From the NCBI GenBank assembly GCA_965216565.1, contig OZ244170.1:928001-992000 (forward strand): a stretch of DNA of 64,000 bases. The letters are read 5' to 3'. Under the pieces are notes generated by a model. The model was not told where the DNA came from. It saw only the letters and a list, made by a program, of their open reading frames with translations, and did no database searches. Below are positions 25,203 through 34,884 of the stretch, piece by piece (within the stretch, counting starts at the first letter, position 1; each line of letters opens with the position of its first letter). Made by a program: the position numbers and the translations under genes. The stretch is from Bythopirellula sp. Its GTDB lineage: Bacteria > Planctomycetota > Planctomycetia > Pirellulales > Lacipirellulaceae.

Positions 25203-26735
25203 CTAGACGAACACGTCGAACGGATCGACATCGAAGCCATCCAGGTTGTCGACCAACAAGAAGTCGACTTCGCCGTCAGCGGCATCGAGCTTGTCTTCGC
25301 CCGCGTCGCCGGCCATGTAGTCGGTGCCCGACCCGCCGTGCAACGCATCGCTACCGCGACCGCCACTCAGGCTGTCGTTCCCCGAGCCACCTCGGAGTAC
25401 GTCGCCGTGCAAGCCACCTTCGACGATGTCGTTGCCACGTCCGCCGAAGAGGCGATCGTTGCCACGCATGCCGCGAATGGTATCGTTGCCAGCCGCACCG
25501 ACCATCAGGTCGTTGCCAACGCCGCCATCCATCACGTCGTTTCCAGCACCGCCGTGCATGGCGTCATCGCCACCGTCGCCAAACATCGTATCATCTCCCC
25601 ACATGCCGAGGAGAATGTCGTTGCCGCGACCGCCGTAGATGACATCATTGCCGAGAATCTGCTCCGTCACCGAACTTGCCAATACCGAGGACATCTCGGC
25701 ATCGATCGCTCGGAACACCTCATCGGCTTCTGGGAGGCCTTCGCGAACGATCTCAGCCTCGACTGCAGGCTCTTCGATCGGGTCGCCGGGCGAGTCGTCT
25801 AAGGCATGGAACGGATCGCCCACGATCACATCGTGACCCAGTCCGCCGCTGAGCTTATCACTGCCAAACCCACCGAGAATAAAGTCGCCGTGTCCGCCGC
25901 CACGAACACCATCGTCGCCCATGCCACCGACAATAATGTCGGCACCATTCCCACCGTAGGCAAGATCATCGCCATTGCCAGTGAGGATAATGTCGTGTCC
26001 GTCGCCGCCCATCACCAAGTCTTCGCCGGTATTCGTGTTGGTGTAATTGAGCGCGTAATGAACGAGACCCTGGTAATCGTCCGGCACATCGTTCGTAGCA
26101 TCGCCGAACAGCCAGTCGTTGCCAATGCCTCCATTGACATTGTCGTTACCGGCACCGCCAGCAATGGCATCGTCTCCCTGGCCTCCACGCAGGTTGTCGT
26201 CGCCCATACCACCCGCGATAGCATCGTTGCCGAGCCCGCCATTGATGTTGTCGTTGCCAGCACCGCCAATGATCAGATCGTTTCCGGCACCTCCACCAAT
26301 GCGGTCGTTATCTGCACCTCCACGGATGTAGTCGTGTCCAGAGCCGCCGACGATGGTGTCCTCACCCTCGCCACCGAAGATTTGAGTCCATTGGAAGACG
26401 CTTTCATCGATGCCAACATGGTCGTTGCCACCCTTGGCGAGGACATAGATTCCGTCGATGTCGTCGCTGTTGAAAGTGCTTGCCTCGCCGTTGACGACTA
26501 CGTGCAGGACATTTTCATCGTCGACAAACGCGCGAATGACGTCGTCTCCCTCGGTACCCTCGGCAATCACCACCCCGATGGGTGGGTCTTCGAGATCGAC
26601 TTCGATAAATTGTTCCGCATCGGTAACTGCCAGATCGGCAGCGAGTAAAGCGCGAGTTTCAAGAGATTCGAATCGTGCCTTTCGGTTAGCGAAAGAAGAG
26701 AAAGATTTTCGCGATGAGAAATTGGACTTAGACAT
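25203..26735 (-). CDS. Calcium-binding RTX (GGxGxD) repeat protein with a planctomycete-type LExRxLLA leader
   Basis: Numerous GGxGND nonapeptides and N-terminal RKARFESLETRALLA. ATG at 26735 with GGAG RBS. Confidence 0.9.
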   Translation of the reverse strand: MSKSNFSSRKSFSSFANRKARFESLETRALLAADLAVTDAEQFIEVDLEDPPIGVVIAEGTEGDDVIRAFVDDENVLHVVVNGEASTFNSDDIDGIYVLAKGGNDHVGIDESVFQWTQIFGGEGEDTIVGGSGHDYIRGGADNDRIGGGAGNDLIIGGAGNDNINGGLGNDAIAGGMGDDNLRGGQGDDAIAGGAGNDNVNGGIGNDWLFGDATNDVPDDYQGLVHYALNYTNTNTGEDLVMGGDGHDIILTGNGDDLAYGGNGADIIVGGMGDDGVRGGGHGDFILGGFGSDKLSGGLGHDVIVGDPFHALDDSPGDPIEEPAVEAEIVREGLPEADEVFRAIDAEMSSVLASSVTEQILGNDVIYGGRGNDILLGMWGDDTMFGDGGDDAMHGGAGNDVMDGGVGNDLMVGAAGNDTIRGMRGNDRLFGGRGNDIVEGGLHGDVLRGGSGNDSLSGGRGSDALHGGSGTDYMAGDAGEDKLDAADGEVDFLLVDNLDGFDVDPFDVFV

Positions 26736-26951
26736 TTGGGTAGTTCTCCGTTCAAAGTTAACCCCAGATAGTTTGCCCCAGATTTCCGTTGCCATTGGCT
26801 CTGCGCGTACCGGTAGCGCAAAACAATTCGCAATTTTTTCGTCGCAGCTGAGTAGCGCTAGCTTCACGTATAGAAACTAAGCGCAGTTACCCGTTCCGTA
26901 ATGCTGCTACTTGATGAAACACGCATTGAGCGAAGAAGTTGCGAACCTTGC

Positions 26952-27110
26952 AAAAAAAAGCCAATCGCCCCGACTGACCTATCTCTCTCGGCAGACCGCT
27001 GAGCCCCCGTCCATGCTGTCTGCAGTGCACTAGAACGTGCTTATTGGTTCAGATCCGCGCCCCCGTTGCGCGACCTGAAGTGAAAAGTGCCAGCACCGAA
27101 GTGCCGTACT
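26952..27110 (-). ncRNA. Candidate structured small RNA or leader RNA, family unknown
   Basis: Lies between a near-consensus promoter and a hairpin+T8 terminator. Five predicted hairpins, including a C(UUCG)G tetraloop and three CGGGG-containing loops. Confidence 0.6.
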
Positions 27111-27116
27111 ATTTTG

Positions 27117-27145
27117 ATAGTATTTTCTGCCACTTCCTAAGTCAA
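27117..27145 (-). promoter_or_regulatory. Sigma70-type promoter
   Basis: TTGACT-N17-TACTAT on the minus strand. Confidence 0.7.
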
Positions 27146-27459: not shown

Positions 27460-28521
27460 TCACTTCGTCATCGCAGCTTGGGAGATCTTGTCGCCGATCA
27501 TCGCAATCTTCTGGTCCCGCAGTCGCTTTTCGTTGAGCCAGTAAGGACTAGTGATTTCTTTGAAGGCATAGATTGCGGCCTGAATACCCTCGGCCCAGGC
27601 GACGGTCACTAGCTTGATATCGCCATGCACATCTCCGACCGCAAAGATGCCTCGCCGGCTCGTTTCGAAGTAGGGATCGACAGCAATGCTGCCGTCCTCG
27701 TTCAGCCGTAAGTCGAGACGCTGAAAGGTTTCTTTGGCTGAAAGAAACCCGATTTGCACAATGATGTAATCAGCTTCGAGTTGCTGATCGTCTGACGTGG
27801 CAAGCGCAATTTCGCCGGCTTCGTACCACGCCTTCGAAACCTCGCAGTTCAGATGAACTTTTCCGCCCGAACTTTGCACCCGGGCGACCGAATCGGACTT
27901 GGCTAGCGGAACATCCTCACGGACAAGCACATTGACCTTGGCATTTCGCTCCAGTGCCATCACGGCTGCGTCGAAGGCCGAGTCGCCGCCACCTACGACG
28001 ACAACCTGCTTCTCGCTATAGTCACCAATCTTGGGCACCTTGTAATAGACGCTCTTCGATTGAAGCTCGTCCAGCACTGGCAACTTCCGCGGATAGTGCA
28101 GCAAGCCGCAAGCGATGATCACCTTGCGGCACAGGTACTCACCGTTCTTCGTGATGACGCGTTTGAGCAACTCGTCTTTTTCCGTTTGATCCGTCTCTTC
28201 AATGGCCACCAACTCGTCGTTGAAGCGAAATTGCACCATGGCATCGACGGCCTGCCGATAGGTCCGATCGCTTAGTTCTTCGCCGCTAATGCCGTCGGGA
28301 AATCCGGGGATGTCGACAATCTTTTTGTCGGCATACAAAAACTGTGGCTGACCTCCCGGCTTGTCCTTCGCCTCGATCACCAGCGTGGTGAGGGCCCGAT
28401 GGGCTGTCGTCAGGCTCGCCGCCAGGCCTGCTGGACCGGCGCCGATAATCACCACATCCCAATAGGCAAGTTTGTCGAAGTCTAACTCGTGATCTAACTC
28501 AGTGACCTTAAAGTCGGCCAT
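27460..28521 (-). CDS. TrxR-fold FAD/NAD(P)H oxidoreductase lacking CxxC (ferredoxin--NADP reductase-like)
   Basis: IIGAGPAG, VVGGGDSAFD and GIFAVGD. No redox-active CxxC in the NADPH domain. Confidence 0.8.
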   Translation of the reverse strand: MADFKVTELDHELDFDKLAYWDVVIIGAGPAGLAASLTTAHRALTTLVIEAKDKPGGQPQFLYADKKIVDIPGFPDGISGEELSDRTYRQAVDAMVQFRFNDELVAIEETDQTEKDELLKRVITKNGEYLCRKVIIACGLLHYPRKLPVLDELQSKSVYYKVPKIGDYSEKQVVVVGGGDSAFDAAVMALERNAKVNVLVREDVPLAKSDSVARVQSSGGKVHLNCEVSKAWYEAGEIALATSDDQQLEADYIIVQIGFLSAKETFQRLDLRLNEDGSIAVDPYFETSRRGIFAVGDVHGDIKLVTVAWAEGIQAAIYAFKEITSPYWLNEKRLRDQKIAMIGDKISQAAMTK

Positions 28522-28745
28522 AGTTCAGTTCCTTGTCTTATCATGGTGACACCCGCTAGCCGCATTGGTTCGCAGTAGAATTTGCCATCGCCACGCCGCC
28601 GCAGTCCAACCGCCCCTGAAGACGCCGCAAGGCTCAGAATCCGTTTCGCCCGAACCTCGATTTAACGTATAATGACAGAGGTCAAGCGGCTTGCAAATAG
28701 GCCGCGGATTATCCGAGGCACTGGAGCAGTCCGCTGGAGAGAATT

Positions 28746-29474
28746 GTGGTAGCAACGAATCGAATCGCAGTCCTGCTGACCGTGATGACCATACTGTTCG
28801 CGGTACAGCAATCTCTCGCGCAGGGTCAATTCCAAGCGAACAATCGCTTTCAAACAGGTATCCCAGGCGCCGCTGGAGTGGGTGCGGACAATAATCAATT
28901 TGGCAATTCCCAAAACGGTTTCGGCCGCCAAGGCGGATTTGGCCAGAATCAGTTTGGCCAGCAGGGTCAACCGGGAGCCTTCGGCCAAGGTGGGCTACAA
29001 CAGGCTGCTCCTGGATCCGCTGAGGCCATGCGAAACGCATTTCAAAACATGTCTGGGCGTCAGCGACGACGAGCGACGTTCGATTTCGTCGTCGAGAGCC
29101 TCAACGAAATGCGCGATCAACGCCGTGAACGTAGGGAACGTCGCCGCAGGCCCGACGCCATTCGCATTCGAATTCGCCCGGCATTCACAGTCGCGCCGGT
29201 CGATGCGACACAGTTGGGTGCCGATTTGAAAGACAATCTGGACAAGTCGATTGAACTCCAAGGCTCATCGGCAGTGGCAGACGTCACGCTGGAAGGCGGC
29301 CGGGCCACGCTTACTGGCACCGTGGCCGACGATCACGAGGGAGCTGTCCTGGCAAGAATGCTCTCGATGCAACCGGGAGTTTCCGACGTCGACAACCAAC
29401 TGGTAGTTCAATCGCTGCAGACCGAAGCCCCGAGTTCGCCCGAACCAGTGTTGCCTGGCGCTGCTGAGCGATAA
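28746..29474 (+). CDS. Secreted BON-domain protein with a Gly/Gln/Phe-rich region
   Basis: Signal peptide, GQ-rich low-complexity stretch and C-terminal ATLTGTV...PGVSDVDNQLVV. Confidence 0.8.
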   Translation: MVATNRIAVLLTVMTILFAVQQSLAQGQFQANNRFQTGIPGAAGVGADNNQFGNSQNGFGRQGGFGQNQFGQQGQPGAFGQGGLQQAAPGSAEAMRNAFQNMSGRQRRRATFDFVVESLNEMRDQRRERRERRRRPDAIRIRIRPAFTVAPVDATQLGADLKDNLDKSIELQGSSAVADVTLEGGRATLTGTVADDHEGAVLARMLSMQPGVSDVDNQLVVQSLQTEAPSSPEPVLPGAAER

Positions 29475-29490: not shown

Positions 29491-31140
29491 TCATTCTAGA
29501 GTGACCGGTCCATCGAGGCCCAAGGCAGCCCCGTAGTCCGCTCTGGCAATGTGATACTCCAAGAGGGCTGCAACTTTCTCAGATGCCGCCTCCGCCGCTT
29601 GCTTCTCTCGGATGTTGAGATTGAATAGCGTGCTTTGCCCTAATTCAAATCGCTGCTGCTCTGCCTCCTGCATTTGCTGGGCAAGCTCGTAGCTTTCCGT
29701 CGCTCGGATCACGCGTTGATGGGCTGCTTCTATCGCCGCACGTGCAATTTGAACTTCGGCTGAGATTTTGTCAGCGGTAAACCGGTTCTTGGCTCGAACC
29801 TGTGCGAGCTTGCCCTGCAGGCTGCGGATCTTTCCATACGCTTTGCGGCGTTCAATAGGGACTGAGACCGTCATCAACGCTTCTAACTCAAACTCCGACT
29901 TATCGCGTTTGGCACTGGTTGGTTCCCCTACGTCTTGTTTGACGAACACCCCGGCATCGACATCGGGTAGCGTCTCATTATTGGCTTGGCGAAGTGCAAC
30001 GCGAAGTTGCTGACTCACGATTTGCAGCTCCGTGAGCTCAGGGCGCCTAGCAAGGGCCAGATTGATATCGTCAGGATCAAGAATCAGGTTCGCTACATCG
30101 TTGCTTTGGAGCGTCTGGGAGTAGAACCCATTGCGGAACGAGTTGGGATCGACGAGCACTGGGTCGCCACCGTAGGTCCGGTAGAACAAGGATAGCTTTA
30201 CGGTAGCCTGTTGCAACTTGCGCTGAGCGTCAATGAGCTTTGCCTCGCGAGAGACAATGATCCGTCGGTTATCGACAAGATCGATTGGGGCTTTCTCTTG
30301 AGCTTCGACTTGAGCTTCCAGTGCTTCGGTGCGCTCTTCAGCCAGCTCGAGCAAATCGATGGCAATCTGCTCGTTCGCCCCAGCGCCTACCCATTGCCAA
30401 TAGGCCACGCTGCCATCGCGAACATATCGGATAACTTGGGCCAGAATCTCAGGCTCGACCCGACTGCGTTCCAGTTGAGCCTGCCACAGTTCTGATCGAT
30501 TGGAGTCTATGTCCCGATCACGAATCACCGGTGCCAAGAAGCCCGCCTTGAACTCGCCCCCTTTATTTGTTTCACGTTCCAGGTACCAGGGCTCGAACAC
30601 TCCCCGTCCGATCCGATAGCCAGCAAAGGTCTGTCCGCCCCAAGTTGTATCTCGCTTGACTCCGATGCTGTGGCGGTAGTTCTCATAAAAATCGAGTGGC
30701 TGCGATTCCGTAAAGGCTTCCAGCTTATGATCAAATGCACCCGAAGCAGACAGAGCCTGGCCCGAAGCGATCCGGCGTTCGGCGATCGCTTGCATGATCA
30801 GCGGGAAATGATTGCGGACCGATTCGGTGACCGATTGAAGTGAGATGTCTGTTGGGATCGGAGTAGCAACTACTTCCGGCAACGGTTCTAAATCAGCTGG
30901 TAACAGAGAGTCTGCATCGTCCGGCTCTCTGAACTCCGGCATCCCTGAATCTTCAGACTGAAATGCGACCGGCAAGATGGTTGGCGACTGCACGCTTGAA
31001 GTCGGAACGTCCGTTCCCACTGTCTGGGCGGTAGTCGTACTGCTGGGGAAATCAGCTTGCCGCTTCGCGCCTGATCTGCAGCCCACCGCGCATAACGCGA
31101 GCGCAATGGTAATACAGGTCCTAGCACTTATCGATAGCAC
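29491..31140 (-). CDS. TolC-family outer membrane efflux lipoprotein (start uncertain, 31140-31176)
   Basis: Lipobox CAVG-C, OEP helical repeats and EQQRFELGQSTLF..N.RE. Lies downstream of the HlyD gene. Confidence 0.85.
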   Translation of the reverse strand: MLSISARTCITIALALCAVGCRSGAKRQADFPSSTTTAQTVGTDVPTSSVQSPTILPVAFQSEDSGMPEFREPDDADSLLPADLEPLPEVVATPIPTDISLQSVTESVRNHFPLIMQAIAERRIASGQALSASGAFDHKLEAFTESQPLDFYENYRHSIGVKRDTTWGGQTFAGYRIGRGVFEPWYLERETNKGGEFKAGFLAPVIRDRDIDSNRSELWQAQLERSRVEPEILAQVIRYVRDGSVAYWQWVGAGANEQIAIDLLELAEERTEALEAQVEAQEKAPIDLVDNRRIIVSREAKLIDAQRKLQQATVKLSLFYRTYGGDPVLVDPNSFRNGFYSQTLQSNDVANLILDPDDINLALARRPELTELQIVSQQLRVALRQANNETLPDVDAGVFVKQDVGEPTSAKRDKSEFELEALMTVSVPIERRKAYGKIRSLQGKLAQVRAKNRFTADKISAEVQIARAAIEAAHQRVIRATESYELAQQMQEAEQQRFELGQSTLFNLNIREKQAAEAASEKVAALLEYHIARADYGAALGLDGPVTLE

Positions 31141-31291
31141 GAATCCAACCTCTTGATAGCATTCCGGGTCCGCCAACCCAGACGAAAAGACGCAATCGTA
31201 TTTGGTAATTATCGGCCTCAGGCCGCGGAAATTAGCGGTGGAAACTCATTTTTAAACGTTCCCAGCCAAGAGAATTGGCCCCAAGTGATAG

Positions 31292-32743
31292 CTAGAGCTT
31301 CACTTTGGGTGGCTTAGACGCTTTTTGGTCGTTTTTCGATTTCAGCGACTGTGGGAATCCGTTCATCCGGCGCCACAACTCGTAGCCCAGCGGAACTTGG
31401 TCCAACAGTACCCAGCCATGGACCCGCACCCCTTGGCGTAGATAAGGATACTCGGGCCAAGGGTTGTCATCTTCGTCGGGGACGACCACCACGCGAAACT
31501 TACCAGCTCCGTCGTCCGTCGGATCGACCAATGCAACTGTTCCGCCAAATGTGCCAATCGCCACACTAGGCCAGCCAGAGAATTGGGCTGCAGGCCAACC
31601 TTCAAACTGCAACCGTACGGGACGACCTGGATCGATCAACGGGGCATCGTTGCCGTTCACCCAAATCTGAACAGCAGGTTTGTCTGTCTCTGGAACGATC
31701 GTGAACAAGGGATCGCCTTGTTTAACAATTGCCGATTTGTCGTAGGCGACAAGACGCATGATATAACCGTCACGGGGAGCAACAACTTCTTGAGTCTCCT
31801 GGCGAGCTAGCTGTGTTTCGAGCTTCGCAAGCGAATTCTTCGTTTTGCTGATCTCTTCACGTGTCTTGGTGATCTCGATCTCTGCCTTGGAGACATCGCT
31901 CTTCGACTTCTCAAGCTCGGACAAGACTTTGTTAATTTTCCCTTCCCATTCTTGACGCTTAGCTTCACGGTCCTTTTGCTTCGCCGAGACTTCATTTTCC
32001 GCGGCATTCACATATTGCTGGGCCATTGCCTGCTTGGCTTTTGCTTGGCGAAGTTTTAGATCCGCTTCTTGAAATTTAAGCCCCGTCTCTAGACCTTTCT
32101 CGCTCAATTGCTTCTTGCGCTGAAAGTCCAGGTCGGCCTGCCAAACCGCGTCCGTTGCGGCTTGTAGCCCTTCGCGTTCAGCGGCGAGTTTATTCGTTGC
32201 CATCTCCACATAGGCTGCGGCAGCCGAAAGTGATTCTATCTGGCCCGCTCGGACAGACGAAATCTCTTCTTCCTTGGCGGCAACCACTCGCGTGTTTGCC
32301 GATAGCTGCTCGGTAGTTCGCTCTAACCTCTGCTTAGCTGCATCCAGCTGATCTTGCGTATTGGTAACTTGCTCGCGGAGCCGCGACAGGTATTGGGGAT
32401 CTTGGTCGGCGATTCGATAAATCAATTGCCCTTTCGTTACCCGTGCGTTCTCGGCAACTCCTTCGCCAATTTCAGCGATCACTCCTTTGACAGGAGCTTG
32501 CACAGCTTGCGGTCGATTGACGGGATCGAAGGCCACTACCGACCCGTCTCCTTTGATGTTCTGCTGCCAGGGTGCAAACACCATCGCAACGAGAGCAATC
32601 ACCATGAATAGAACCAGCCACTTCGCAACGCGACGAGCGAGCCGCACGGAGCGCGCCAACCGCAACGCCGGAAATTCGTGCTCGCTATAGGCGACCTCCG
32701 CCAAAGCCTCGCTGGCTTGTTGTTGTTCGGCTGCAGTGCTCAT
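31292..32743 (-). CDS. HlyD-family membrane fusion protein
   Basis: N-terminal TM segment ending in PWQQ, lipoyl half-motifs (APVKGVI, APRDGYI), a long coiled coil and VRLQFEGWPA. Confidence 0.9.
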   Translation of the reverse strand: MSTAAEQQQASEALAEVAYSEHEFPALRLARSVRLARRVAKWLVLFMVIALVAMVFAPWQQNIKGDGSVVAFDPVNRPQAVQAPVKGVIAEIGEGVAENARVTKGQLIYRIADQDPQYLSRLREQVTNTQDQLDAAKQRLERTTEQLSANTRVVAAKEEEISSVRAGQIESLSAAAAYVEMATNKLAAEREGLQAATDAVWQADLDFQRKKQLSEKGLETGLKFQEADLKLRQAKAKQAMAQQYVNAAENEVSAKQKDREAKRQEWEGKINKVLSELEKSKSDVSKAEIEITKTREEISKTKNSLAKLETQLARQETQEVVAPRDGYIMRLVAYDKSAIVKQGDPLFTIVPETDKPAVQIWVNGNDAPLIDPGRPVRLQFEGWPAAQFSGWPSVAIGTFGGTVALVDPTDDGAGKFRVVVVPDEDDNPWPEYPYLRQGVRVHGWVLLDQVPLGYELWRRMNGFPQSLKSKNDQKASKPPKVKL

Positions 32744-34884
32744 GCCACAACTCCTGAATCCGAACTTGGTTTGCTCTTTGCTGAATCGGCCGGCGAATCG
32801 ATCAAAATAACCTTGGCGAACTGCTCCGCCACAGCACGTCGATTTGTCGCGACAAGCAGGGTAAATTGCTGTGCTTCATCTTGGAGCATTTCGCACACTC
32901 CCTGAAGCTGAACATCTGCCAGAACGTCCAACGCACCATCAATGAGTAACAATCGTGGCCGACCAGCGATTGCCCGCGCCAGCATCAGCAATTGCCGATG
33001 AGTTGCCAGTAGCTTTAAACCAGCGGGCTTCAGTTGAGTATCGAGCCCATCGGGAAGTCGCAACACATCGTCCAACAAGCCGACAGCATACAAAGCACTT
33101 CGCACGTCGGTCATGCTGATGGCCGCACGTCCTAGTTGGATGTTCTCTGCAATAGTGCCTTCAAAAATCTCGATGCCTCGTACCAACGTGACTGCCTTGC
33201 GGAGAACATCGGGGCGTAAGTCGCGCGGATCGGCATTTTCGATGACCACATGTCCCGTATCTGCGGCTCGCAACCCGTAGAGAATATCGAAAAGGTCATT
33301 GGACCCTGCATTTTCCGAACTCAGCAAAGCAACATGATCGCCCGCCTCCATTTCCAGAGATAGCCCTTTCGCTAACCAGGCACCGGCATCATTGTCGCTT
33401 ACATCCGTAATCCTCAAACGCACTCCTTCATCGGTGCGAAAGGCTAGCAAGCCATCTTGGGGCTCAATTCTCAAGTCGAATAGATAGCCAAGTTTGTCGA
33501 CCGATGCGACCACATCGTAGAAGCCCTCGATGTGTTTTCCCATCTTTGTCAAAGAGTTGAGAATCGTTGCAACAATCAGTTCTGCCGCGACTAGCTGCCC
33601 GATAGTTAGTTGTCCTTGAATTACGAGCCAGCCACCAAACCCAAGCAAGATTGTGCCGGCGAACGCTTGCAATCCTAAAAGGAATAGGAGCTGACGAAAT
33701 AGCACCTTGAAATGACTTCGGCGCGTATCGAGGTAGGCGGAGGTGACCAGATTGGCCCGATCCAAGGCAAACTCCGCAGCTCCGGAAGACTTAAAGGTGA
33801 TGGAGCAACGCATCAAGTCTTCCAGCCAACTGGCCAGACGATATTTCTCCTTCGATTCGTCGATCCCCGTGCTAATGGCACCCCGGCCTAGAGCCACCAA
33901 GCCACCTGAAACAATCAGCAAAAGGAGCACATCAAAACCAAGTAACCAAGGATGATAAAATGCCAGCACCGCCATACCAACAATCGTTGCCAAAACAATG
34001 GTTATGCCGTCCAGCAACAACTGAGCGACAACCTTCTGGAGGGTAACAATATCGAAAAAGCGATTCGCCAACTCTGGCCCATACTTCCCATCTAGGGAAG
34101 ATTGGCTGACGCGAGGAAATCGATAGGCCAAGTCTGCCGCAACCCGCGCAAACAGCCTGCGCTGGATGATTTCGACGAGAAATGTTTGCACCGCTTTCAT
34201 CAAGCCGGCGAATGTAAGAAACCCGAATAGCATGAGCGACAAGATCACCAGAGGCTGAATCAGCCGGCCAAAGGTCACCATGTTCACCAGCGATTCCACG
34301 GCAATTGGAGTGGCCAAGCTGAGCACGCTGGCGAAGAAGGCGAAAACGCCGATCACCCACATGTCAGACCATTCTGGCTTGAGGAGAGCGGCGAAACGAG
34401 CGATCGGTCGGTGATGGAACGAGGCAGTTGGCTCGTGGCTTACTTCCAAGTCTTCAACAATCAGCCAGCGAAATGTCGTTTCTGAAGAATCTGCGGAAAC
34501 GAGTGCGGCAAACTCTCCATTTGCTCGCACGACTTTCTTTTCCTTATCTGCGCAAGCAACCCGTACTTTTTTCCCATCGGAATCGAGCACAATGATGGCC
34601 GCTTGTTGGTCGTGCGAGTACCCTACAACCAGGGCCCCGTCTTCCACCAAACTCAATGCGTCCTCAAGAGATAGCTCTGCAAGTTTCGATCTGAGCTCCA
34701 AGCACCGCAGACCTTCCGCTAGCCACTTCGGCCACAGCTTGCTGGGTTCACCGGGCCACGCCTCTTGCGCCTCGGCAATTAGCTGCTCCGCGCGAAGACG
34801 CTCAATACCGATGCCCCGCTCTCTGGTAATCCGAACCAAAGTGGCTGCTAGATTAGAACCGGTTTGGCTAGCATCTGATGACAT
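32740..34884 (-). CDS. Type I secretion-type ABC transporter (N-terminal accessory domain, TMD, degenerate NBD)
   Basis: ABC membrane domain (ELANRFFDI, GQLVAAELIV). The NBD retains IFEGTIAENI and LARAI..P.LLLID, but Walker A and B are degenerate. Confidence 0.88.
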   Translation of the reverse strand: MSSDASQTGSNLAATLVRITRERGIGIERLRAEQLIAEAQEAWPGEPSKLWPKWLAEGLRCLELRSKLAELSLEDALSLVEDGALVVGYSHDQQAAIIVLDSDGKKVRVACADKEKKVVRANGEFAALVSADSSETTFRWLIVEDLEVSHEPTASFHHRPIARFAALLKPEWSDMWVIGVFAFFASVLSLATPIAVESLVNMVTFGRLIQPLVILSLMLFGFLTFAGLMKAVQTFLVEIIQRRLFARVAADLAYRFPRVSQSSLDGKYGPELANRFFDIVTLQKVVAQLLLDGITIVLATIVGMAVLAFYHPWLLGFDVLLLLIVSGGLVALGRGAISTGIDESKEKYRLASWLEDLMRCSITFKSSGAAEFALDRANLVTSAYLDTRRSHFKVLFRQLLFLLGLQAFAGTILLGFGGWLVIQGQLTIGQLVAAELIVATILNSLTKMGKHIEGFYDVVASVDKLGYLFDLRIEPQDGLLAFRTDEGVRLRITDVSDNDAGAWLAKGLSLEMEAGDHVALLSSENAGSNDLFDILYGLRAADTGHVVIENADPRDLRPDVLRKAVTLVRGIEIFEGTIAENIQLGRAAISMTDVRSALYAVGLLDDVLRLPDGLDTQLKPAGLKLLATHRQLLMLARAIAGRPRLLLIDGALDVLADVQLQGVCEMLQDEAQQFTLLVATNRRAVAEQFAKVILIDSPADSAKSKPSSDSGVVA

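Follow-up and report, generated by a model that had tools for sequence, protein, structure and literature searches.

Layout of the locus

On the minus strand of the window, by which we mean the whole 64,000-nt stretch of Bythopirellula sp. DNA that was analysed, a predicted sigma70-type promoter and a series of hairpins lie between a thioredoxin-reductase-like gene and an RTX beta-roll gene (Table 1). The RTX product carries a planctomycete-type N-terminal export motif. We saw no catalytic domain in it, its predicted fold is a beta-roll, and a fold search with the protein returned only generic RTX beta-roll matches. In a ranking of 2123 genes by closeness of their codon usage to that of ribosomal-protein genes, it stands at place 157. 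ABC transporter, HlyD and outer-membrane efflux genes, a type I secretion set, lie at 29491-34884 (minus strand), 3-8 kb upstream of the RTX gene; this set was not beside the RTX orthologues in 20 other loci examined. A 171-aa open reading frame at 28525-29040 (minus strand) is probably the shadow of a conserved plus-strand gene.

A sequence-only reading of the window had proposed a small RNA of about 160 nt with its own promoter and terminator or, as a second option, an attenuator leader for the RTX gene. The parts that it described were all present on the minus strand: the promoter TTGACT-N17-TACTAT, five hairpins (P1 to P4 and a terminator-like hairpin, T) and eight U residues after the last of them. 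The motif that it saw twice in the loops recurs as an 8-mer at 27066-27059 and 27010-27003. The proposed leader of the RTX gene measures 376 nt.

Table 1. Features of the RTX leader and its flanking genes in the Bythopirellula sp. window.
Feature	Position	Strand	Remarks
Thioredoxin-reductase-like gene	27460..28521	-	Upstream of the element
Sigma70-type promoter (predicted)	27117..27145 (-35, 27145-27140; -10, 27122-27117)	-	9/12 consensus matches, spacer 17
P1, hairpin of the 5' end	27091..27106	-	Fold and arm-permutation test
P2, bulged hairpin with a G-run loop	27048..27079	-	Best conserved module; homologue comparison, arm-permutation test
P3, small hairpin	27027..27040	-	Variable middle, without conservation; fold, homologues
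P4, second G-loop hairpin	26991..27023	-	G-run/loop comparison
T, terminator-like hairpin (GGGG loop) and U-tract	26952..26979 (hairpin, 26979-26959; U8, 26959-26952)	-	
Switch strand	26968-26959	-	3' arm of T
Downstream leader	26802..26945	-	Conserved GCGC-type palindromes and an A-rich/U-rich hairpin, inside the long-range helix; possible DNA sites too
Long-range strand	26791..26800	-	Complement of the T 3' arm; 9/10 pairs in the Bythopirellula sp. locus
Two ribosome-proximal GGGG runs	26762..26779	-	-44 and -30 from ATG; nearer one kept family-wide
Shine-Dalgarno GGAG	26746..26749	-	
RTX beta-roll gene	25203..26735	-	510 aa; ATG at 26735

Taken from the Bythopirellula sp. genome alone, the signal of promoter, hairpins and U-tract is modest and barely above chance. 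The fold of the element had a z of -1.89 against shuffles, with 8 of 200 shuffles folding as well; one promoter-like site was found where shuffles gave 1.4, and two terminator-like sites where they gave 2.2. The element is the sole occurrence in the 5.2-Mb genome of two ACGGGGG on the same strand within 150 nt. A search of the window with Rfam covariance models, which the earlier reading had called for, gave nothing at gathering score (the best E value near the element was 9.9), and the leaders of eight homologous loci had no match at E up to 1 to the Rfam models (T-box, riboswitches, 6S, SRP, Cuckoo and others). The element thus has no Rfam match, in agreement with the earlier judgement by eye that it does not resemble SRP or 6S RNA. 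Its reality was settled by homologues, because these show both G-runs in the loops and pairing of the arms of hairpins 1 and 2 with their own partners.

Conservation of the hairpins and of their G-runs

BLAST against 41 genomes picked up the last hairpin alone, in five members of the genus, and upstream of those five matches lay the same promoter, 5' hairpin and G-loop hairpins. We then anchored the homologue set on the RTX gene, which was found in 30 of 120 Lacipirellulaceae genomes. The unit from promoter to last hairpin was clear in 22 of the 30 orthologous RTX loci, from three genera. It measured about 110-290 nt in these 22 loci, with a variable middle, and the whole leader 325-542 nt. 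A promoter-like site directly 5' of hairpin 1 scored at least 9/12 in 16 of 21 homologues (that of L066, additional to the 21, was chosen by eye). Zero to three extra G-loop hairpins occur in the P4 region, and the UUCG loop and hairpin 3 are local to the Bythopirellula sp. genome. Eight of the 30 loci, which belong to distant genera (L075, L077-L083), had no recognisable G-loop array; a reduced form of it was seen in L075, L080 and L130.

The unit keeps its place before the RTX gene even where the neighbour on its other side differs, the thioredoxin-reductase-like gene being present in 9 of 21 loci, and in one case it has been duplicated together with a tandem RTX paralogue. A covariance model of T matched in 21 of the 120 family genomes, once in each and always before the RTX gene. 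Twenty of these were training genomes (two other training genomes were missed), and the remaining one was a new locus, L193, where the match lies before the gene start with a threefold tandem copy of the G-loop hairpin. The same model had no match in any of the nine genus genomes that lack the RTX gene, four of which are at least 94% complete. An exact-pattern scan of all species genomes returned 19 stretches. Twelve were planctomycete loci before the RTX gene, and we discarded the other seven (Pseudomonas, Chloroflexota, others and one Rhodopirellula), which have neither promoter nor gene, as chance.

Outside the family, a profile of the RTX N-terminus gave only four weak matches (E about 1e-13) in 301 class genomes. 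With a P1-P2 model we obtained 13 weak hits, spread over 12 of 151 order genomes; a scripted check found a promoter-like site at none of them, but the model also missed the Bythopirellula sp. locus itself, which makes this negative result a weak one. At one weak P1-P2 match (L222, G134:C1:281349-281408) there are several G-runs and the RTX gene is on another contig; this match may be due to chance. The comparison with related planctomycetes asked for by the sequence-only reading found the element conserved. Its proposal of an unannotated structured RNA with repeated loop motifs gained support from the 22 homologous loci and their co-varying stems, and the high-copy REP/MITE that it had named as a danger was not found, with one copy per genome by blastn, nhmmer and covariance model. 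As judged by comparison of genomes, the element is a conserved, single-copy structured RNA confined to Lacipirellulaceae (Bythopirellula and its kin), directly before one RTX gene.

We compared the pairing of hairpin arms with that of arms permuted among genomes. P1 arms paired at -11.6 kcal/mol with their own partners and at -7.8 kcal/mol with permuted ones, none of 20000 permutations being as good; the halves of P1 were cut from each genome's own fold, which favours own pairing. For P2 the values were -11.0 and -8.1 kcal/mol, again 0/20000, over 20 loci; the genomes compared are kin, so the permutation counts given here overstate significance. Counting co-varying pairs by program on a MAFFT alignment that spanned the entire 5' part, with P2 out of register, gave no clear outcome. 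The expectation of conserved, co-varying stems was borne out for P1 and P2 by the arm permutations and not for the whole array: hairpin 3 is not conserved and the stem of T shows no covariation above that of shuffles. A GGGG run with incomplete Watson-Crick pairing lies in the 3' arm of P1 in 17 of 22 homologues; among the 68 G residues of these runs, 44 are in G-C pairs, 10 in G-U pairs and 14 unpaired.

G-runs recur in the loops. Across the 22 loci 47 of 86 GGGG runs fall in loops of predicted hairpins; in shuffled sequences the figure was 431 of 3586. The base 5' of the run is C in 46, T in 25 and A in 15 of the 86. Because the flanking bases vary, the conserved motif is the G-run itself, of 4-7 G, rather than ACGGGG, and the ACGGGG-type motif of the earlier reading does not generalise to the homologues. 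Most runs (72/86) have four or five G. Loop size ranges from 3 to 7 across homologues, and in L071 the P2 loop is GAAA in place of a G-run. The 22 leaders hold 120 runs of four or more G and seven of four or more C (13.9 and 0.8 per kb). In a set of 931 other upstream regions the corresponding densities were 2.4 and 2.9 per kb, and only five of these regions have five runs.

A further GGGG stands at -28 to -38 from the ATG, about 32 nt before it, in 29 of 30 RTX orthologues, including those of distant genera without the hairpin array; in 19 of 22 loci this start-proximal run lies 12-16 nt before GGAG. The sequence-only reading had overlooked this second place of the motif, by the ribosome-binding site. 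Among other genes GGGG is found at this distance from the start in 40 of 1548 (2.6%) with no genome-wide peak, and near -30 in only 3 of 21 genes with the planctomycete export motif. We therefore rejected a genome-wide G-tract regulon, since GGGG is not enriched before the starts of other genes, which is odd for a dedicated protein. Shine-Dalgarno mimicry by the G-loops was ruled out by inference, as the loops never show GGAGG. An excess of CCCC at -40 to -20 shrank to about 1.4-fold on non-coding upstream regions. Three G-run hairpin loops also occur in the leader of an RRM gene (G000:C1:4454013-4454360, minus strand).

The last hairpin and a proposed second partner

In Bythopirellula sp. the T hairpin has a predicted energy of -10.2 kcal/mol and is predicted to form on the nascent chain with a probability of 0.99. 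Because of this value and the U8 that follows, a short terminated RNA is likely in this genome according to the folding model. Among homologues the U-tract is less constant, with at least five T in the eight bases after the last hairpin in 13 of 22 and a weak tract in 9 of 22. The sequence of the T arms is kept, 83.7% of cells being paired, and their covariation was not above that of shuffles.

A consensus fold from T to the ATG showed that the 3' arm of T can also pair with a conserved strand that lies some 170 nt further on and 50-90 nt ahead of the ATG. The own-genome duplex of these strands had -12.4 kcal/mol compared with -10.7 +/- 0.44 for permuted partners, and none of 20000 permutations was as good. 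Without two near-duplicates the count was 5/20000 and within the genus 128/20000, while two control arms showed no long-range effect (14044 and 13360 of 20000). In the 18 of 22 loci passing a score cut, and hence selected by score, the 180 cells comprise 145 Watson-Crick and 25 G-U pairs (170 paired in all), 3 A-C and 7 other, and three columns of the helix change on both sides. The excess of G-U over A-C points to an RNA on the minus strand. L171, a held-out metagenome locus, has a further compensated change. T is mismatched in L055, L066, L072 and L076, where its 3' arm still fits the downstream strand. Taken one by one, only 12 of 22 loci had a helix above shuffles; it is weak or absent in L059, L061, L063, L065, L067 and L068 and, as judged by eye, in the held-out L193. 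Full-length folding favoured T in 14 of 22 loci and the long-range helix in five; in Bythopirellula sp. the two leader folds came to -125.2 (T) and -122.8 kcal/mol (long-range), a difference of 2.4.

Given this co-variation between the 3' arm of T and part of the RTX 5' UTR, the hairpins and the RTX message most likely share one leader of 325-542 nt, and the small RNA and the leader are probably two products of one promoter. It is also possible that the pairing occurs in trans, between the short RNA and a separately promoted RTX mRNA. Tests against the 76 nt before T gave no co-variation for either of its arms (15626 and 6597 of 20000), so no anti-terminator was found there, and we found no small open reading frame with a Shine-Dalgarno sequence shared among homologues and none in Bythopirellula sp. 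that could serve as a leader peptide. Control of read-through would then need a trans factor or a tertiary fold, because neither an anti-terminator helix nor a leader peptide was found.

Between T and the long-range strand (26802-26945, minus strand), repeated TGC-N7-GCA and GCGC-type palindromes keep their sequence across homologues; they may be RNA hairpins or transcription-factor sites. These conserved palindromes could mark a second promoter. A sigma54 or ECF promoter downstream of T was rejected, the spacing by eye not being constant, and no conserved sigma70-type site was seen there in a site scan, with homologues inspected by eye.

A probable cis-acting leader and its alternatives

Comparison of the loci supports a single sigma70-type promoter followed by P1, one to four G-loop hairpins and hairpin T, whose 3' arm appears to have a second, mutually exclusive partner near the ribosome-binding site. 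The arrangement is most likely a cis control switch of the RTX gene rather than a free small RNA, which agrees with the second option of the earlier reading: the T arm co-varies with the RTX 5' UTR and the linkage to the gene is constant. We think it about an even chance that the element forms the 5' half of a long, attenuator-type leader regulating the RTX gene, in which a trans factor binds the G-tracts to control both termination and translation and the short RNA acts as a decoy. T would be a leaky or conditional terminator, so that the promoter gives both a short RNA of about 160 nt and a read-through mRNA. In the read-through RNA the downstream strand would displace the 5' arm of T and close a domain of 150-280 nt, and this helix would set the G-run of the T loop next to the ribosome-proximal run. 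These sites might be bound by a factor that recognises G-tracts in single-stranded RNA, most likely a protein with multivalent RNA binding. Our best guess is repression, with the factor stabilising T and blocking ribosome loading, and the direction of control is a guess. The terminated G-loop RNA could titrate the factor and so set a threshold. Transcription reaches the downstream strand too late for it to stop termination at T, so this model does not account for the control of read-through.

The CsrB/RsmZ-type small RNA that was proposed is not the best reading, because the loops lack GGA, the element is never apart from the RTX gene and is duplicated with it, the U-tract is weak in 9 of 22 homologues, and T and the 5' UTR co-evolve. 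A broader version, in which an RNA of about 160 nt ends at T and titrates a G-tract binder while the RTX gene is transcribed from a separate promoter among the palindromes and has nothing but the binding motif in common with it, is unlikely. The U8 and the predicted stability of T in Bythopirellula sp., the variable copy number of the loop motif, the palindromes between T and the gene and the same motif by the ribosome-binding site would all suit it, and the co-variation of T with the RTX 5' UTR, the linkage and weak U-tracts just named and, judged partly by eye, the lack of a conserved sigma70-type site downstream of T speak against it. A G-quadruplex switch without protein, in which the long-range helix gathers the G-runs of T and of the ribosome-proximal region into a quadruplex whose cation-dependent folding would compete with T and either hide or expose the ribosome-binding site, seems quite unlikely. 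It would explain why only run length (4-7) is conserved and why G-runs are kept even inside P1 despite wobbles and bulges. Runs of three or more G near T and near the start total at least four in 17 of 22 loci, in 5 of 22 a canonical pattern of four runs extends over part of T, and the T and start counts are negatively correlated (rho -0.57 to -0.40 by window, a post hoc result that is weaker with wider windows). Bythopirellula sp., however, has only three such runs in those windows, the best ViennaRNA fold contains a quadruplex in 1 of 22 loci, G-runs in tetraloops closed by co-varying stems better suit presentation to a partner, and one P2 loop has been replaced by GAAA. In the form of a protein-free ion sensor, a helix-assembled quadruplex responding to K+ or to Ca2+ (the RTX product is expected to bind Ca2+) and switching termination and translation, the idea is rather improbable; if it held, the leader would count as a G-quadruplex riboswitch occurring naturally in bacteria. 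We give a similar chance to a CsrA-type paralogue whose specificity has shifted from GGA to G-tracts and whose decoy array is built into the leader in cis.

The G-runs might instead pair with a C-rich trans small RNA for which the loops are decoys, and this we consider very unlikely. Pure G-runs without A substitutions would fit pairing to C-runs, and RepG-tlpB of Helicobacter pylori offers a precedent (PMC8295292). In that paper, however, a 6-G repeat is reported not to be regulated by RepG, against the 4-5 G of most runs here. A simple scan of one genome gave seven promoter-to-U-tract candidates with C-runs, none convincing (two at tRNA loci, one in the rpsA leader); the rpsA leader was rejected as a C-rich target, its C-runs not being conserved in 23 leaders. 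The rpsA leaders of the genus (L137-L160) do keep a promoter-like site, and their hairpins have a small loop that is conserved as well. That the leader merely sets dosage or stability, P1 protecting the 5' end and T trimming a fixed fraction with no regulated input, is to us likewise very unlikely; the near-consensus promoter, the 5'-end hairpin, the lack of an anti-terminator and the codon usage of the RTX gene would agree with it, and it does not account for why G-runs are so strongly selected in loops and at -32 or why one strand has two alternative partners. Scarcely credible is a DNA-level feature or repeat (REP/MITE or transcription-factor sites) whose hairpins are incidental: in some of the palindromes downstream it is the sequence and not the pairing that is kept, yet the element is single-copy, G-U is far above A-C on the minus strand and stems co-vary.

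The element resembles a Csr-type operator and decoy set or a TRAP-type attenuator and fails the defining features of both. Canonical CsrA needs GGA. As in CsrB/RsmZ and CsrA operators, several hairpins present one short G-rich loop motif and the motif recurs just 5' of the target's Shine-Dalgarno sequence (PMC10729762). The loops differ in being pure G-runs and not A(N)GGA, with six ANGGA in total over 22 RNAs, and the decoy sites are in cis on the target's own leader, with one apparent target and no global regulon. CsrA can bind some RNAs lacking GGA, as described in PMC10729762. Bythopirellula sp. has 12 CsrA matches over the Pfam cut-off (L042-L053), three of them fused to a receiver-like C-terminal domain. 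We know of no RNA partner of these paralogues, and a CsrA paralogue with relaxed specificity would be the leading named candidate for the putative trans factor. Autoregulation of csrA was rejected: one paralogue has GGGG at -22, but it is kept in only two of 19 parsed orthologues (25 fetched). The RRM protein was likewise dropped as binder, since RRM_1 was not found in the element carriers G004, G009 and G018.

The trp leader bound by TRAP and the two-hairpin ANTAR leaders are protein-controlled attenuators with repeated sites, the latter pairing an ANTAR protein with twin hexaloop hairpins. Our element shares with them repeated short leader sites, a terminator-like hairpin and a second site at the ribosome-binding site; unlike in them, no anti-terminator helix was found, its loops range in size as given above, and its T arm pairs with a strand far downstream. 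ANTAR (PF03861) had no match in the Bythopirellula sp. genome, and control genomes were silent too. The guanidine-II (mini-ykkC) riboswitch has two conserved ACGR tetraloops before an exporter gene. Two hairpins with ACGG in their loops recall it in Bythopirellula sp., whereas the AC is not conserved, ACGR tetraloops and an Rfam match are lacking, and RTX is not a guanidine exporter gene. RepG-tlpB shares a homopolymeric G-run in the 5' UTR as regulatory site, with the difference that tlpB has one long phase-variable repeat (6-16 G) pairing a C/U-rich small RNA (PMC8295292), while here there are many short runs in hairpin loops and the simple scan of one genome found no partner RNA. Like the element, the Rhodopirellula-1 motif is a candidate cis-regulatory RNA in planctomycetes; it is described as one long stem with a variable loop and no G-run loops, with 153 representatives over two phyla (PMC2864571). 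The main text of PMC8632094 names no planctomycete. A literature search of titles and abstract openings, with few subscription journals, found no description, and supplement-only motif catalogues may contain the element, so that this RTX leader is apparently undescribed so far.

The comparative evidence argues for a real cis-regulatory leader of narrow range, part of one family and one gene, which limits its general impact. To our knowledge, almost nothing has been described of RNA-level control in planctomycetes; the element is a comparatively supported regulatory RNA of that group, with one motif in loops and at the ribosome-binding site and a helix of two predicted states. A bacterial G-tract-binding regulator and a functional bacterial RNA quadruplex would each answer open questions. 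SpoVG is present once in Bythopirellula sp. (L084, G000:C1:5020411-5021901), with a cysteine-rich insertion and about 1 kb from a csrA paralogue.
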